Source: Candidatus Hermodarchaeota archaeon
Lineage (GTDB): Archaea > Asgardarchaeota > Thorarchaeia > Thorarchaeales > Thorarchaeaceae
Reading direction: 5' to 3'
NCBI GenBank assembly: GCA_048885865.1
Contig: JBHLLF010000002.1
Location: 96,001-160,000, forward strand
Length of the DNA: 64,000 nt
The position numbers and the translations under genes were made by a program. Below the pieces are notes generated by a model. It did no database searches. It was given only the letters and a program-made list of their open reading frames with translations, and was not told the origin of the DNA. Positions 2,535-58,799 of the stretch are shown here, one piece after another (positions within the stretch are counted from its first letter, which is position 1; every line of letters begins with the position of its first letter).

Positions 2535-3050
2535 ATGACAACCAGAATTGTGCTTGCAATGCATGGAATGCCTCCGAAGGATTTCCCAGAAGAGGAGGTT
2601 GTTGAGCTAATCAGGCTTCACCGTATAATTGAGAAAGCAGGAGATCATGCTCCAGCAGAGATGCGAGTCCGGTTCGCTCAACTGGATAGCAGAGTTAGAA
2701 ACTGGGAGCGTACTTCCGAGAACGACCCCTTCTGGGCGTCATCTCTGAACCTGGCTGAAGAGCTTCAAGAAGCAACAGGCTTTGAAGTCATTGCTGGGTT
2801 TAACGAATTCTGTGCACCCAATCTTGACGAAGCTATAGACACAGCTGCTCGTTCAAATGCAGAAAGGGTGGTCATTGTTACGCCTATGATGACTCCTGGT
2901 GGTGAGCATTCTGAAGAGGACATTCCTGAGGCAATATCGGCAGCCAAAAATCGATTTGATGGAGTTGAATTCATCTACGCCTGGCCTTTTCCTAGGTCTG
3001 ATGTAGTGTCTTTCTTGACGAGCCAAATCCAAAAATTCAGTGATGCATAG
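2535..3050 (+). CDS. cbiX: CbiX/SirB-family sirohydrochlorin (cobalto)chelatase
   Basis: N-terminal LAMHG, GFNEFCAPNL, and P-MM-PGGEHSEEDIP, the class II chelatase His motifs. Confidence 0.75.
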   Translation: MTTRIVLAMHGMPPKDFPEEEVVELIRLHRIIEKAGDHAPAEMRVRFAQLDSRVRNWERTSENDPFWASSLNLAEELQEATGFEVIAGFNEFCAPNLDEAIDTAARSNAERVVIVTPMMTPGGEHSEEDIPEAISAAKNRFDGVEFIYAWPFPRSDVVSFLTSQIQKFSDA

Positions 3051-3320
3051 TAACATATTGTGACTCCATTCTGTGACCCTCAATTGTGGCTCCGCTATAT
3101 ATACTGATTCTGAGTGCTAATTCTTGTGAAATATCATGGCTCTAGCAACTAACTCTCGAAAGTCACACGATTTGAAGAAGAAGCGAACTCTGCCTCCTTC
3201 AACAAGGGCAATAGTCCAGGCTTACCTCTATAATAGGTAAGCACCTGTTATGGGGGAATGGTTCGTGCCCTTCAAATATCCTGACGGTTTTGTGCACTCA
3301 TTCAACCGAAAAAAACGAAT

Positions 3321-3344
3321 GGTTTGGTTGCCAAACCTTTATAT
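3321..3344 (+). promoter_or_regulatory. Archaeal TATA box (TTTATAT 3338-3344) abutted by a perfect 7-bp inverted repeat (GGTTTGG-ttg-CCAAACC)
   Basis: Seen directly; lies ~25-30 nt upstream of the structured element. Confidence 0.5.
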
Positions 3345-3369
3345 GGATTTGGCCCGCACATTCAACCAC

Positions 3370-3720
3370 ACATCATCGGCAAGCAACCAGTTCGTGGAGT
3401 ATAGTGGTTGGTCACTGAGTGCCCGCAACTGCGGTCACTTTCGCCCATTAACGGCTTATACTGTGACCAGACATAATCTACGTGAGGCAAATCCAATGGA
3501 TAATGACCCAAACTGTGTTGTGGCCGGTTCAGCTCAAGATGTTGAAGTGCCCTCCCAGGCGGCTGTTAATGGGCGATCCTCGCTCGAAGGAGCATTTACG
3601 GTCAAGAAGGGACCGAGAGGTCCCAAGCCAGTTGTGGTAGATATACCATACTTAGCAAACTCCTATCTCCGTTGTGGCGCTCTCGGGGTCAAATCCCGGG
3701 AGCGCTACAGCTTACATCTG
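3370..3720 (+). ncRNA. Putative structured non-coding RNA, family unrecognised
   Basis: 16-bp stem 3441-3456/3561-3576; hairpins GCTC-GAAG-GAGC (3582-3593), GGGACC-GAGA-GGTCCC (3609-3624), TGTGGTA-GATA-TACCATA (3633-3650) and a 17-bp hairpin with GTCAAAT loop (3671-3711); wobble pairs are G-U on the + strand; upstream TATA and downstream T-rich tract ~3761. Confidence 0.6.
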
Positions 3721-3808
3721 TGAGGTTAAGAGCCATGGTTTCGGAAGCGCCACATTCTGATTTTTCCTTCTCTATTCACGTTGTCCATAATCGACTGAGG
3801 TTCAAGAA

Positions 3809-5293
3809 ATGAGCAGATTAGCAAATGCAATAGGACTCCCAGATGCTAATGAAAAGGTTCTTCGATTAGCAAGGATCTTGATTTTCCTAGGCCCATTGGC
3901 TACATTCACTTTCACTATGTCGACCACCTTCTATCTGATTTTTGTCTCTGAAGCATTGGGTGGCGGCGATTATATCGCAGGCCTTCCCTTGGTAGCAACT
4001 CTTGTAGTCATCCAGATGGCCATTCAATTACTCCTGGACTACCCTACTGGTGCAATTGGAGACTGGATAGGACAGAAGTATATAGTATCATCAGCCACCA
4101 CGTGCTACGCTATTGCGTTTTGGTTAGTTTCACTGGTCACACCAACAACTCCATTCTGGTTCCTAGTCCTCATCTATGTAATTCAGGGCCTTGGCAACTC
4201 TCAGATGAGTGGAGCGCTTAACACATGGTTCGACAATAACTATAGAGTCGCCATGCCAGGTGACTCGGATAGAAAGCAGTATGGTATGTTTTGGGGAAGA
4301 GTCGGAGGAATGATGCAAGTCGTATCAACTGCAGCACTAATCCCTGGTAGCATCTTGGCTGCAGTCTTTGGTCGACCATGGGTATTCCAGCTGCAGGCTG
4401 TATTGGCTCTAGTCCTAACTATTCTCGGCCTCAGATTCATCACGGACTTTCCTGAGGTTCAGGCCGCACGACAACAGCGACCCACCATGAGTGGGTACAC
4501 CAAGATTCTGAAGGATGGTGTGAGCTATCTATGGAGTGAGCCCTTTGTCAAATACATCGTAATCGGATCAATGCTTGCCACCAGCTCGATAATGGTGTGG
4601 GGCAACCTTATCCTGTTCCCCATGTACTTCCTGTACCTTATCACTGACGTTGCTGTTGCATCGTTTCGGACTGTCCTATTCATTCCTGGGATTGCTGCAC
4701 AGGAAAGGTCTGGAGTTTGGTCTAGACGATTTGAACCCAAAATATGGATTCCTAGATTCCGACTTATTCAGACATGCGGGCTCGTGTTCTTCCTCGTCGT
4801 TTCATTCATAATGTTCCTATTTCCGCCTGCTACAAACGGTGGTCCGATGTTCAGCGTCGTTCTGCCTATTGCTAATGTGGAATTAATGCAGATACCAGTA
4901 GGCAACATCTTGCCGGTCGTGTTGCTCTTCTTTTCCTTCACTCTTACTGGCTTTTTTGGAGGATTTGCTGAGATTCTCACACAGAGGCAACTCCTTGATG
5001 CCATTCCAAATCGAATTAGGAACTCAATGTATTCCCTTTCTCCCACCATCGCAACCATATTTGCACTCCCACAGATCTGGTTCTTTGGATGGTTGATACC
5101 TACCATTGGATTTCCATTGACTCTACTGTTATGTGGAATGGTGTCTCTCATCGGTGTGTTACTGATACGCAAAGGTCTTCACCAGCCAAAGCCCGTTCTT
5201 GAAGAGGAGGCTTGGAGCAACAGCCAGCCGGAAGCCCAGGAAGTAATTGAAGAGATAGAAGAAGAGATGGCCCACGAACTGATTGAAGAGTAG
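3809..5293 (+). CDS. MFS transporter (tandem paralog 1)
   Basis: 494 aa multi-TM; DYPTGAIGDWIG motif A-like; acidic C-terminal tail. Confidence 0.88.
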   Translation: MSRLANAIGLPDANEKVLRLARILIFLGPLATFTFTMSTTFYLIFVSEALGGGDYIAGLPLVATLVVIQMAIQLLLDYPTGAIGDWIGQKYIVSSATTCYAIAFWLVSLVTPTTPFWFLVLIYVIQGLGNSQMSGALNTWFDNNYRVAMPGDSDRKQYGMFWGRVGGMMQVVSTAALIPGSILAAVFGRPWVFQLQAVLALVLTILGLRFITDFPEVQAARQQRPTMSGYTKILKDGVSYLWSEPFVKYIVIGSMLATSSIMVWGNLILFPMYFLYLITDVAVASFRTVLFIPGIAAQERSGVWSRRFEPKIWIPRFRLIQTCGLVFFLVVSFIMFLFPPATNGGPMFSVVLPIANVELMQIPVGNILPVVLLFFSFTLTGFFGGFAEILTQRQLLDAIPNRIRNSMYSLSPTIATIFALPQIWFFGWLIPTIGFPLTLLLCGMVSLIGVLLIRKGLHQPKPVLEEEAWSNSQPEAQEVIEEIEEEMAHELIEE

Positions 5294-26685: not shown

Positions 26686-27402
26686 ATGGCTGAGCAGTTC
26701 CTAAGTCGCCTCCAAGATATTGAGAAGGCCATTGCGGGCCTAGATGACACTTTGAAGCGTATGGTGACAATTCTAGCGAATATGGATGAGATTCGTTCTG
26801 ATATCAGACTTACCAAAGACGAACTCCTAGACGCTATCAAAGCAATGCCTGCTCCAAGTTCAGACTCTGGAGGCAACTTGGATCACGTTGCTGATCTTGT
26901 CAAAGGTCAATTTGACCAGATTGCTACATTCATCGGGGAAGCGGTTGAAGCCATGAAAGATGATATAGTAGATGCAATGAAGCGGATCCAGGCAGCTGCA
27001 CCACCCGCTGTTGTCACTGCACCAGCACCAGCTCCAACTGCTGTTCCCGCTCCAGCTGCACCAGCACCAGCTCCTGAACCTGAGATTGTCGTAACTCAAC
27101 CTACACCAGCGCCAGTTACCGTGACAGTTCCAGCTGATAAAGCCATGATGATAGCTGATGAGCTAGACAACATCGTCGCAAGTCTGAAGATGGGCTGTAA
27201 AGCAGGGGATGTTCTTGACCAGATGGACGACTCAAAAGCTAATATTCTGAAATTTGTTGAGAGCGATCCGGTCATGATAAAGATCGATCAGTGGAAGGGA
27301 ATAGTGGGAGCATATCCTAAGAGGAAGGAGCTGCAGGCACGAGATATCCTCAAGATTAAGAAGGGGATACGAGCAGAAATTCCCAAATATCGCCCCGCAT
27401 AA
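26686..27402 (+). CDS. Coiled-coil protein with Pro/Ala linker and small helical C-terminal domain
   Basis: N-terminal heptad pattern; APAPAP linker; GGGAG upstream of ATG. Confidence 0.75.
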   Translation: MAEQFLSRLQDIEKAIAGLDDTLKRMVTILANMDEIRSDIRLTKDELLDAIKAMPAPSSDSGGNLDHVADLVKGQFDQIATFIGEAVEAMKDDIVDAMKRIQAAAPPAVVTAPAPAPTAVPAPAAPAPAPEPEIVVTQPTPAPVTVTVPADKAMMIADELDNIVASLKMGCKAGDVLDQMDDSKANILKFVESDPVMIKIDQWKGIVGAYPKRKELQARDILKIKKGIRAEIPKYRPA

Positions 27403-27458
27403 GAAGAATCAGAAATCTTGGAACCAGTCCAAGTCTGAGTGTTATTTTGAACTATGAG

Positions 27459-27629
27459 CTATTCCTTTAGGAACCTCTTGATAATTCCCTCTACAAGTTT
27501 CAAATGTTCATCATCCAGAATCGATATCTTTGAGCGTATCCAGTCTATTCGTAATTTCTTATCAACTAGAACCTGTCTACCCTTGTGCGCTACAGCTTTT
27601 CCAGAGGGTCTAGGTGATGTTTTGACCAT
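27459..27629 (-). CDS. Small basic hypothetical protein
   Basis: MVKTSPRP...LKLVEGIIKRFLKE; fills the gap between neighbours; ORF extends to 27668. Confidence 0.45.
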   Translation of the reverse strand: MVKTSPRPSGKAVAHKGRQVLVDKKLRIDWIRSKISILDDEHLKLVEGIIKRFLKE

Positions 27630-27743
27630 AAAGGTTGCTATGACTATTCGAAAATAAGTAAATTCCACATGGATAAGTGACAGACCACTTTGCTAAAGAG
27701 GGTTAAAAGCTAGGATAATCTTGTCCAATTCTAGTTTGAAAAC

Positions 27744-38999: not shown

Positions 39000-40076
39000 C
39001 TAAAGTTTCCTCTTTCCAAGCAGAAACTCCTCAACCCATCTCTCAGCTCTATACATGGTTGTAGGTGTGGGAGGCATCTTGAATCCATAGGCAGAGATCG
39101 ATTTCAGTGCTCCACCAATCTCTCTCTTGAGGGCTAATTTCGCACCGCGGATTGCATCCATTAGGATGGGTCCTGCATTTGGGCCATCAGTGACTTCCAT
39201 TCTGATATCAATCTTAATCGGTGCGCCTCCAAACTGGCGGCCATGTATATAGAAGTACGACTCCCTGCTGTTGTCCATGAATGGAACGAAATCTGAAGAG
39301 CCAGCCACGAGAGGAGCGTCATAAGGTAGGTCTTGACTGATTGCACTGCTCTTTACTCCTCGCTTCCTCATACGACCTCGATAATGCGAATCCAGTGACT
39401 CAGCTCCTCCGCCTACATCCAACTGATAGCTTTTATCTACACGAACTCCGCGAGCCACAAGAAGCTGGAGCAAGTTCCTATGAAGCACAGTTGAGCCAAG
39501 CTGGTCTTGAAGATCGTCTCCAATCAGAGGCAGTCCTTTCTCTTCGAATTTGTTGCTCCATTCTTGGTCAGAGGCTATCGGTATTGGAGCGCCATTAATG
39601 AATGCACATCCAGCTTCAAGACTGGCTCCAGCATAGAACTTTGTTGCTTCCTCGGCAGACCCTGGCAAGAGGTTGATGACGACCTCTGCCCCTGAGTCAC
39701 GAAGAATCTTGACAACATCCGAGTCGGATTCGCTGGAAACCGTGATCAATGCTCGAAGCATATCATCTACTCCATCGTGAACAGGACCTTTCTCTACTTT
39801 CACGCCGGTCCTAGGAACATCCGCAAATCGAATAACATTGTTGGGGTTGGCAAAGATTGCATCTGCTAGGTCTACGCCTACCTTTCCTTCAGCCACATCA
39901 AAAGCCGCCACGAAATTGATGTCTCTTACATGAAAACCAGCAAAATCTGGATGGCTAAGACCTACTAGGTCGTCGTTAGCTTTTGTATCTTTATAGTATT
40001 CCACGCCCTGGATTAGGGCGCTCGCGCAGTTGCCTACACCCACTATTGCTACATTTATCCCATTCATGCTATACAC
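39000..40076 (-). CDS. ino1: myo-Inositol-1-phosphate synthase
   Basis: VAIVGVGNCASALIQG, AAFDV..KVG.DL, IGDD, YQL.VGG, AYGFK.PP. Confidence 0.9.
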   Translation of the reverse strand: MYSMNGINVAIVGVGNCASALIQGVEYYKDTKANDDLVGLSHPDFAGFHVRDINFVAAFDVAEGKVGVDLADAIFANPNNVIRFADVPRTGVKVEKGPVHDGVDDMLRALITVSSESDSDVVKILRDSGAEVVINLLPGSAEEATKFYAGASLEAGCAFINGAPIPIASDQEWSNKFEEKGLPLIGDDLQDQLGSTVLHRNLLQLLVARGVRVDKSYQLDVGGGAESLDSHYRGRMRKRGVKSSAISQDLPYDAPLVAGSSDFVPFMDNSRESYFYIHGRQFGGAPIKIDIRMEVTDGPNAGPILMDAIRGAKLALKREIGGALKSISAYGFKMPPTPTTMYRAERWVEEFLLGKRKL

Positions 40077-57359: not shown

Positions 57360-58799
57360 ATGTTTAATTTACTAGGTAGAAACGAAATAGCCGACATCCA
57401 TGTAGCAGCCATGGAGGTTCTTGAAAATGTTGGAGTAATGGTTCAACATGATAAGGCACTGAAACTACTCGGGGATGCAGGAGCAGATGTAGATAAGAAG
57501 TCCAAAGTGGTGAAAATCCCTGAGAGCCTGTTGCAGGATGCTCTGCAGAAATCGCCTGGAAGGCATTTGATGGCATCGCGGAATCCGAAGTACGATTTTG
57601 TGATTGGAGATGGAGCGTCATATTATACGAATGCATTTGGAGCTCATTATACTATAGACTTGGAAACGGGTGAACGAAGACTATCTACACTGAAGGATCT
57701 AGAGGAGTTCACACTTCTTGCAGATTACTTCGCAACTGTAGACTACATCAAGCCAAACATCCTTCCACAAGATGTGTCTAAAACCATCTGGGAACAAGAA
57801 ATGGCTTTGGCTATGTTCAAAAGTGCTGAGAAGCATCTAAGCTTAGTCGCATTAACTCCTCAGGGGTGGAGAGATGTGATTAGAATGTCAATGATTGTGG
57901 CTGGGGGTGAGGAGGAGTTCATCAAGAATCCATCCTTTATTGATACAGGATTCAATAATGTTCCCCCCCTCAAGTATACGCCAGAAATCATTGATATGAT
58001 CCTGGAATGCGCGAAATACAAGATACCATTTGACATCAGTACTGGTGCCCTCGCTAGCGCCAGTGCTCCAGTTACGCTAGCAGGAACAATAGTGCAGGGG
58101 ATAGTTGAGAACCACGTAATTGTAGTCCTAACTCAGCTTGTGGGACCTGGTACACCCATTATGTGGGGGTCCTGCGCAACCATTCTTGACCAACGATATG
58201 GGACCGCAGCCTATGGGTCGCCTGAGAATGGACTAATTCACGCGGCGTTTTCCCAGATGGCTCGATTCTATGGCATTCCCTACTACGGTGCGGCTGGAGT
58301 CATTGACTCAAAGATTCCTGATCATCAGGCCGTATATGAGAACACCATCAATGTACTAGTTGCAACCCTTGCTGGCGCTGATGTTGTACACGACGCAGTA
58401 TACGGAATAGTTGAAGCTGGAGTGACTGCTAGCTATGAGTTGTTCGGAATAAGCAATGAAATCTGTGGAGCCATAAAGCGAATCGCAAAAGGTATGAGAG
58501 TGACAAAGGAGACCCTTGCTGCTGATCTTATTGCAGCAGTGGGACATGAAAAGAACTATCTCAATACCCCAGAAGCATTGAGATTTACAAAGAAGCATCT
58601 ACTAGAGGAACAATGGCAGCCTGTTTTGACTGAACGGGCTTCCAGACCGGAATGGGAAAAGAGAGGTTCGAAAGACATGTTCCAGAGGGCAAAGGAACAA
58701 GTCAAGGAGATTCTCTCCAGTCATGAGGTTGAACCTCTGGGCAAAGATGTGGAAGCAGAAATGCGGAAGATTATAGACAAGAGATCTAAAGGAAAATAG
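57360..58799 (+). CDS. mttB: Trimethylamine methyltransferase (MttB) superfamily protein, pyrrolysine-free
   Basis: IH...EVLE.VG, APVTLAG, GSPE, DSK.PD.QA.YE; no in-frame TAG. Confidence 0.9.
   Translation: MFNLLGRNEIADIHVAAMEVLENVGVMVQHDKALKLLGDAGADVDKKSKVVKIPESLLQDALQKSPGRHLMASRNPKYDFVIGDGASYYTNAFGAHYTIDLETGERRLSTLKDLEEFTLLADYFATVDYIKPNILPQDVSKTIWEQEMALAMFKSAEKHLSLVALTPQGWRDVIRMSMIVAGGEEEFIKNPSFIDTGFNNVPPLKYTPEIIDMILECAKYKIPFDISTGALASASAPVTLAGTIVQGIVENHVIVVLTQLVGPGTPIMWGSCATILDQRYGTAAYGSPENGLIHAAFSQMARFYGIPYYGAAGVIDSKIPDHQAVYENTINVLVATLAGADVVHDAVYGIVEAGVTASYELFGISNEICGAIKRIAKGMRVTKETLAADLIAAVGHEKNYLNTPEALRFTKKHLLEEQWQPVLTERASRPEWEKRGSKDMFQRAKEQVKEILSSHEVEPLGKDVEAEMRKIIDKRSKGK

Follow-up and report, generated by a model that had tools for sequence, protein, structure and literature searches.

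The window analysed here, a 64,000-nt stretch (G000:C2:96001-160000, where G000 is the source genome) of a 3.58-Mb metagenome-assembled genome of a Thorarchaeota (Asgard) archaeon that is 87% complete, carries an element of about 400 nt flanked by a CbiX-like gene (2535-3050) on one side and by two genes encoding transporters of the major facilitator superfamily (MFS_1) on the other. The element is a real, strongly conserved, folded non-coding RNA present in a small group of Thorarchaeota. It constitutes a new RNA family of narrow range, with a broadly bacterial-leader-like mode of action but unusual in its size, its host, and a layout that can be translated through. We consider it, with a probability of roughly 0.6, to be a cis-acting structured non-coding 5′ leader of the MFS operon that gates translation of the transporter, and this gating probably runs through a coupled upstream open reading frame (uORF). 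The leader derives from and belongs to a Thorarchaeota cassette of micro-peptide and transporter genes. A preliminary description of the locus, made from the letters of the sequence, had proposed either a novel structured RNA or a long leader for the MFS paralogs; it did not include the micro-peptide gene at 3136-3240, the uORF at 3735-3812, or the sharing of two modules across the family.

Among 60 relatives searched by BLAST, full-length copies of the element were found in only three other genomes, all of the same genus, with identities of 93%, 79%, and 76%; this puts it in 4 of the 17 genomes of the genus, and about 10 metagenome contigs carry it as well. Pattern scans of the genome and metagenome contig collections returned only 3 + 2 loci, and an open reading frame (ORF) of 157 amino acids (aa) that overlaps the element, 3250-3723, had 18 relatives in a metagenome protein collection, all labelled as hypothetical proteins. 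The genome copies, nine sequences from contigs encoding this mis-called protein, and two pattern-scan hits were combined into a set of 15 sequences, which are the homologs referred to below. The gene upstream of the element varied among loci (CbiX, another MFS gene, or an unknown 314-aa protein), while a 494-aa MFS gene lay downstream of it wherever the downstream gene was complete, the short contigs being those that cut that gene.

Regarding the coding potential of the region, public gene callers present the element as a hypothetical protein of 104-174 aa whose frame and start differ from record to record (e.g., NCBI ACFFER_05275; P0002-P0019). The 157-aa ORF was open in 15/15 homologs and in 19 protein-database entries, and an SD-like (Shine–Dalgarno-like) GAGG plus ATG at 3484-3498 opens its last 75 codons. 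A protein-coding gene, either the whole ORF or the part from ATG 3496, with the RNA structure as an incidental feature, was weighed and judged very improbable. The same conserved nucleotides were translated in differing frames among the members (MVWLPNLYMDLA versus NGLVAKPLYGFG, and IPYLTNSYLRCGALG versus TAYKTPISVVALSG), the 3′ arm of the long hairpin at 3671-3711 was read in three frames in the protein alignment, and the frame differed among members after position 3650 because of indels of +1, -4, and -4 nt. Substitutions between the source genome and its congener G008 were spread evenly over the codon positions (18/20/21), as was the mean pairwise difference of the 15 sequences over 3496-3639 (0.124/0.152/0.117), and over the same interval dN/dS was 1.04 (dN 0.150, dS 0.144). 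There is no added constraint on the encoded amino acids, and the purifying selection on the ORF that the preliminary description had named as the outcome that would count against an RNA was not detected. In the adjacent MFS gene, by comparison, dS reached 1.43 with a dN/dS of 0.04, so that the rate of change at every position of the element is about one-tenth of that at the neutral sites beside it. Moreover, the ORF begins at 3250, upstream of the promoter at 3321-3345 and in the least conserved part of the locus, and has no match to a Pfam or NCBIfam family.

Some coding-like signals were nevertheless recorded on the side of a protein. The value of dN/dS was 0.35 over 3388-3495, and the 75-codon frame 3496-3723 was open more often than random substitution predicts, with a joint P of about 0.02 that is overstated because the lineages were treated as independent. 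Within the geometry of the leader, the stop of this frame fell between -11 and +4 of the uORF start in 13 of the 15 homologs, with one running on to the MFS start, and ATG 3496 occupies the position at which other genera start their peptide genes. The frame may be translated, with no selection on its peptide. Codon periodicity over 3385-3495 (0.086/0.175/0.253) was also considered as a coding sign and rejected, as no conserved start codon was found there; repeats that in other genera are 11-12 nt apart may be partly responsible for it. The annotation as "hypothetical protein" in the 19 database entries is almost certainly wrong.

The folding analyses gave a minimum free energy of -170.6 kcal/mol for the 450-nt stretch, with a z-score against dinucleotide shuffles of -5.55 on the + strand versus -2.47 on the - strand, and seven homologs were all more stable than their shuffles (z -2.8 to -6.2). 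The excess of stability on the + strand was noted for 3362-3790. An RNAalifold consensus of the 15 sequences comprised 87 pairs and was compared with controls in which the 3′ partners were slid by 1-3 columns and with 500 shuffles. Standard pairs occupied 97.8% of the cells, versus 37-48% with the partners slid; both-sided (compensatory) changes were found at 10 pairs, versus 3-4 when slid; and the covariation score was 0.150, versus 0.037-0.055, with none of the 500 shuffles reaching the observed values. Within the genus, the terminal hairpin 3671-3711 showed five compensatory pairs and eight one-sided G-U/A-U/G-C exchanges, hairpin 3418-3439 showed two pairs with compensatory change, and helix 3609-3624 varied on one side at five of its six pairs, all of which were still paired. 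The long-range helix retained 13 pairs in the homologs, 11 of them invariant and the other two showing an A-U/G-C and a G-U/A-U exchange. Because one-sided exchanges of this kind are tolerated only on the + strand, the RNA is assigned to that strand; likewise, the four G-U pairs of hairpin 3671-3711 are possible on the + strand only, in line with what had been noted earlier about the wobble pairs.

Most of the helices proposed at the outset were recovered. The long-range helix, 3441-3455/3562-3576, spans 15 nt with 93% complementarity, the CCGC/GCGG stem corresponds to a hairpin at 3418-3426/3431-3439, and the three hairpins with GAAG, GAGA, and GATA caps are all present as GCUC-GAAG-GAGC (3582-3593), GGGACC-GAGA-GGUCCC (3609-3624), and GUGGUA-GAUA-UACCAU (3634-3649), with loops of the GNRA type in most homologs (GAAA, GCAA, GUAA, GAGA, GCGA). 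The CAACCA/TGGTTG stem, in contrast, is missing from 8 of the 15 homologs. The existence of structure is well supported; the full architecture is not. GGUCAC (3410-3415) and GUGACC (3465-3470) form a candidate closing helix whose sides are invariant, but its pairing is broken in homolog L041, and in one of the RNAalifold runs this helix and the long-range helix are in competition.

When considering known RNA classes, the Rfam search of the whole window at gathering score returned nothing but a distant PYLIS element, the search of 3050-3900 at E<=10 gave only noise (E>4), and ARAGORN found no tRNA in the region. A diverged ribonuclease P (RNase P) RNA, signal recognition particle (SRP) RNA, tRNA-like element, or known riboswitch would fit the size and multi-helix shape of the element, and SRP RNA (RF01857) was not found anywhere in the 87%-complete source assembly. 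RNaseP_arch (RF00373) had no match in 3050-3900 even at E<=10, and its genomic copy lies on another contig (G000:C4:63429-63766, 162.6 bits). Archaea_SRP (RF01857) did not match the region either, and 14 of 16 congeners, among them the element carriers G008 and G015, have SRP RNA elsewhere in their genomes. The SRP RNA scores of the congeners were mostly just under the Rfam gathering score (84-92 versus 96.5 bits). With the element present in so few genomes of the genus, such an identity is largely refuted already and we regard it as next to negligible, in agreement with the preliminary statement that signatures of RNase P RNA, SRP RNA, and tRNA were missing. Together with the constraint at the nucleotide level and the + strand structure, the lack of a matching Rfam family bears out the proposal of a novel structured non-coding RNA. 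For a riboswitch, a conserved aptamer with covarying helices would be expected upstream of a gene; structure and conservation of this kind were observed, but the narrow range and the near-invariant helices make the comparison a limited one, and no known class matched.

The hairpin 3671-3711 had originally been likened to a tRNA minihelix with a T-loop. The hairpin itself stood, with 19 bp; the likeness did not. Two homologs show a perfect GGG-UUCGAAU-CCC tip resembling a T arm, but the loop is variable: GUCAAAU in our sequence, and GCCAAAU, UUCGAAU, AACAAGU, AUUAAGU, AUUAGAU, GUCGGCU, UUCGGGU, or GUCGGGU in the homologs, with G, U, or A at position 1 and A or G at position 5. In a T-arm mimic, the 7-nt T-loop (U54-U55-C56-R57-A58) would be conserved and would cap a stem of some 12 bp that ends in a single-stranded 3′ tail. 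The stem measured 17-19 bp within the genus, rather than 12, versus 13-14 bp in other genera, where the loop of 8-12 nt contains GUGUGAUC (GUGUAAUC in one case), and the candidate was rejected.

The palindrome and TATA box of the preliminary description are present in the sequence, as GGTTTGG (3321-3327) and CCAAACC (3331-3337) followed by TTTATAT (3338-3344). This 25-nt motif, GGTTTGG-N3/4-CCAAACC-TTTATAT, occurs 63-68 nt ahead of the start codons of micro-peptide genes in many related genomes, so that a promoter belonging to the element itself is credible and would be of the micro-peptide-regulon type, with a predicted transcription start near 3366-3372. Only two good copies were found in the source genome, the second heading a micro-peptide operon on contig C13. 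The micro-peptide gene just upstream of the element, 3136-3240, has a different promoter of the AGTCAC-N5-GTGACT palindrome type, composed of AGTAAC-ATATT-GTGACT (3049-3065), GTGACC (3073-3078), and the TATA-like CTATATATAC (3095-3104), a layout also found ahead of the micro-peptide gene on contig C18. This unannotated gene encodes a basic 34-aa peptide (MALATNS...RAIVQAYLYNR) that is a member of the Thorarchaeota "AY.Y.R" micro-peptide family, and its dN/dS was 0.39 in frame versus 1.59 and 0.73 out of frame. The L041 copy has an in-frame TGA at codon 8. Paralogs were located on contigs C13 (~39600-40000, - strand; locus L002), C18 (~27330-27650, +), and C22 (47640-47950, +), each of these operons comprising two tandem peptides with "AY.Y.R" tails and then a third small ORF ending in ...EAT. 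The C13 operon has the promoter of the element ahead of it and peptide tails that include ...AIGFAYTYRR and ...AIAHAYLYR, and the C22 operon is situated behind a copy of the first shared module, described next.

MFS orthologs of other genera, with 58-67% identity, have upstream ORF-poor regions of 220-800 nt, and two modules of the element recur in them. In module A, several GGUCAC repeats stand in an array ahead of GUGACCA, and nhmmer matches to it lie upstream of 23 MFS orthologs; in other genera and on C22 it is followed by an SD and then by a micro-peptide gene. Module B consists family-wide of AAAUCUCCUAUCUCC and then the long hairpin, either directly or after a small inserted hairpin. 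It was found at 31 loci with 26 distinct hairpins, whose stems differ between genera with 309 of 312 outer-pair cells canonical. At L054-L064, in another genus, the inserted hairpin (GAAUCUCC...GGAGAUUC) lies between CUCCUAUCUCC and the long hairpin, whose loop keeps GUGUGAUC, and a conserved ORF of 35-38 aa (MKRETDLL...DHNQKTE-like) between module B and the MFS gene ends 2-9 nt before its start. The segment between the modules, ~3476-3650, is specific to the 15 close homologs, and the place usually held by the peptide gene is therefore filled in this lineage by a constrained folded RNA. Of the regulon cassette, the promoter motif and the GGUCAC leader module are both present, and no ORF of about 30 codons for a basic peptide with an A-Y-x-Y-R-R-like tail was found behind that promoter, between 3345 and 3808. 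A covariance model of the central domain scored 180-199 bits on the known copies, picked out only four genomes of the genus, and found nothing comparable in 86 genomes of the family; outside the genus it recognised module A alone, and the long-range helix was not kept.

The half-sites of module A suggest an explanation at the level of DNA only, in which GTCAC/GTGAC sequences form an operator array for a regulator of the micro-peptide regulon; the rest would be what is left of a degenerating series of micro-peptide genes, and the RNA fold would have no function. A palindrome of these half-sites indeed lies upstream of the micro-peptide TATA box (3049-3065, and also on C18), they are repeated three or four times in module A, about 11-12 nt apart in other genera, and a micro-peptide gene occupies the position after module A in those genera. 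Operators do not account for 400 nt of uniform constraint, nor for compensatory changes and G-U pairing possible on one strand only, the asymmetry of the z-scores between strands, or stems that differ between genera with pairing kept, and we regard this explanation as improbable.

The link to the transporter was invariant. The MFS start lies 72-87 nt past the stop of the called ORF, which is 97-125 nt past the hairpin, and the spacer 3712-3808 is conserved (0.24 versus a neutral rate above 1), with no conserved oligo-T or TATA in the 15 homologs. Within the spacer, the uORF start at 3735 was kept in 15/15 homologs (13 ATG and 2 GTG), preceded by an SD-like GAGGU or AGUGA. The uORF is 17-25 codons long and is read in three different frames among the homologs, which leaves its peptide without conservation. 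The position of its stop was in every case within -19 to +4 of the MFS start, and in our sequence its TGA overlaps the MFS ATG 3809-3811 (ATGA). At MFS loci of other genera, an ATG-started ORF of at least 12 codons ended in the same 30-nt zone in 19 of 26 cases, versus 25% of control windows. The geometry of this leader suggests translational coupling. Of the two options of the preliminary description, a leader for the MFS paralogs fits better, given the invariant MFS link, the conserved spacer, the missing oligo-T, and the uORF that ends on the MFS start.

The main competing explanation is a separate, stable non-coding RNA. This molecule, about 340 nt in length, would start near 3370 and end at 3711 with the hairpin protecting its 3′ end; it would act in trans or as a protein scaffold, and the MFS genes would be expressed only by read-through or separately. 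In its favour are a strong promoter belonging to the element, of a type behind abundant small transcripts, the high stability of the terminal hairpin and its conservation across genera, and a compact multi-helix fold with GNRA-type loops. The T-rich tract described initially is also real in this genome, as a T5 run at 3761-3765, 50 nt past the hairpin, but it is missing from the other 14 homologs and there is no conserved terminator. Furthermore, the sequence between hairpin and MFS gene is conserved and carries the coupled uORF, the predicted 5′-3′ closing pairs 3378-3382/3781-3785 extend past the long hairpin, no separate MFS promoter is visible, and the element was never found apart from an MFS gene. 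A separate molecule is therefore considered unlikely.

As a cis-acting leader, the RNA would be transcribed from the micro-peptide-regulon promoter at 3321-3345, with a start placed near 3370, and would fold in four parts: the hairpin module with GGUCAC repeats; the genus-specific domain closed by the 13-15-bp long-range helix; the three small, mostly GNRA-capped hairpins; and the invariant CUCCUAUCUCC tract with the 17-19-bp hairpin. The transcript would continue into the 25-codon uORF, and ribosomes would reach the transporter gene mainly by coupling through it, possibly fed as well by the 75-codon frame that ends at the ribosome-binding site of the uORF. The folded leader would set the number of ribosomes entering this relay, or the survival of the transcript, and in this way transporter output would follow a signal that acts on the RNA and could be a protein, a micro-peptide, some small molecule, or the act of translation. 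On a further and tentative reading, which we think rather unlikely, one lineage of Thorarchaeota replaced the peptide-coding part of the cassette with a sensor RNA of about 400 nt, riboswitch-like or binding a protein or peptide, through which ribosomes may translate in a three-frame relay (3496-3723, 3735-3812, and the MFS gene).

Several observations weigh against a cis-acting leader. We infer the transcription start, the 3′ end, and read-through alike, and hairpin 3671-3711 could be a stable 3′ end, in which case the RNA would be a molecule of its own. The 15 sequences are close relatives, and as most helices are nearly invariant, the covariation is carried by about 10 pairs, while the long-range and closing helices of RNAalifold shift with the chosen boundaries. 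A TATA box has GTCAC half-sites ahead of it as well (3049-3078), so that module A may in part serve as an operator in the DNA. Finally, duplexes between CUCCUAUCUCC and either SD were weak (-2 to -9 kcal/mol) and not better than those with shuffled targets. In most sequences, CUCCUAUCUCC is paired with an SD-like GAGG(U) in the thermodynamic folds, which makes it plausible as an anti-SD that masks the ribosome-binding site of the uORF or of the MFS gene; the z-scores were not significant, and this role is a tentative idea. As to a target in trans, the complement of CUCCUAUCUCC showed no enrichment at informative positions of the genome, and the 3′ end of the 16S rRNA was not found in the source assembly, which is 87% complete.

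Table 1. Positions of the element and of its neighbouring features in the window.
Feature	Position	Strand	Remarks
Promoter/operator of the upstream micro-peptide gene	3049..3104	+	Kept in 10-11 homologous loci
Micro-peptide gene, 34 aa, MALATNSRKSHDLKKKRTLPPSTRAIVQAYLYNR	3136..3240	+	Frame kept in 11/12 homologs
Promoter 2 (putative), palindrome GGTTTGG-TTG-CCAAACC then directly TTTATAT	3321..3345	+	Invariant in 15 homologs
Module A: GGUCAC repeats, hairpin 3418-3426/3431-3439, GUGACCAG (3463-3470)	3410..3470	+	nhmmer matches in other genera
Central domain closed by the long-range helix 3441-3455/3562-3576	3441..3576	+	Helix 100% paired
Inner hairpins of the central domain	3523-3533, 3534-3545, 3548-3561	+	
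SD-like GAGG and ATG within the central domain	3484-3487 (GAGG), 3496 (ATG)	+	
Three short hairpins	3582-3593, 3609-3624, 3634-3649	+	Mostly GNRA-type loops in homologs
Module B: invariant CUCCUAUCUCC (3660-3670) then long hairpin 3671-3711	3660..3711	+	31 loci, several genera
75-codon open frame across the structured region, 3′ part of the 157-aa ORF 3250-3723	3496..3723	+	
SD-like GAGGU ahead of the uORF	3722-3726	+	
uORF, 25 codons, stop TGA 3810-3812	3735..3812	+	Start kept in 15/15 homologs
MFS_1 transporter gene, 494 aa	3809-5293	+	Pfam PF07690; presumed regulated
Second MFS_1 transporter gene, 508 aa	5376-6902	+	Pfam PF07690; presumed regulated

Two further features were recorded in the window. 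A mini-frame of 10 codons lies in module A at 3419-3451 (+), reading GTG ... AVTFAH, and its stop (TAA or TAG) is kept in 15/15 homologs; its tail is faintly like the C-terminus of the micro-peptides, which may be a coincidence. Far from the element, a match over the gathering score (44.3 bits) to the Rfam family PYLIS_3, the pyrrolysine insertion element of mttB, was found at 58299-58398 (+), which suggests a gene for a pyrrolysine-containing methyltransferase in this Asgard genome.

Asgard archaea are the closest prokaryotic relatives of eukaryotes, and to our knowledge few structured regulatory RNAs are known from archaea. Our literature search on Asgard non-coding RNAs and on this micro-peptide family found nothing relevant, and no riboswitch-like leader or structured regulatory RNA described from Asgard archaea. 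The element offers a clean case, in which about 400 nt change 10 times more slowly than neighbouring synonymous sites, covary in a strand-specific manner, and are tied to one transporter family. It provides a testable model for control based on RNA and translation in a Thorarchaeota lineage, is connected to a lineage-wide micro-peptide regulon, and is an example of how structured RNAs can pass for ORFs in metagenome catalogues. Given the narrow range, the broader importance of the finding is moderate; if the sensor-RNA relay were true, Asgard archaea would have a large cis-regulatory RNA of a new kind.

When compared to other systems, the element resembles the bacterial orphan RNAs raiA, OLE, ROOL, and GOLLD (Rfam) in being a multi-helix RNA of several hundred nt with GNRA loops and conserved unpaired stretches, likewise found by comparative analysis. 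In contrast to them, it always lies in cis ahead of a single gene family, has a very narrow range, and is crossed by an open frame, and no match in sequence or structure links it to them. In lantibiotic and bacteriocin operons of the nisA-nisB type, stem-loops lie between the peptide gene and the export genes, and the long hairpin of module B in other genera is similarly located between small-peptide genes and a transporter gene. Such a position would suit a hairpin that stabilises the transcript or allows part of the read-through; archaeal termination is normally independent of hairpins. Unlike the nisA-nisB type, the element has the invariant CUCCUAUCUCC tract, which has no counterpart there.

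The ermCL-ermC, cat86, and bmrB-bmrCD systems are bacterial leader-ORF translational attenuators of resistance and efflux genes. The likeness lies in a long structured leader before an efflux-type transporter, in short leader ORFs that end beside the ribosome-binding site of the regulated gene, and in the suggested logic of expression set jointly by translation and RNA folding. The predicted uORF 3735-3812 supplies the short ORF beside the regulated start that characterises leader-ORF attenuators. The differences are the archaeal host, a leader 3-4 times longer, and a uORF peptide that is not conserved and so holds no stalling motif; moreover, SD masking has no statistical support here, and no alternative terminator/antiterminator pair was seen. 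The closest relationship is with the micro-peptide regulon of the Thorarchaeota themselves, whose basic peptides of about 30 residues share a promoter and are often encoded ahead of an MFS gene. The element has the same promoter motif, the GGUCAC leader module, an MFS gene of that family downstream, and a member of the peptide family just upstream, but this copy of the promoter has no peptide gene behind it; a constrained, folded non-coding RNA of about 300 nt, restricted to part of a single genus, lies there instead.

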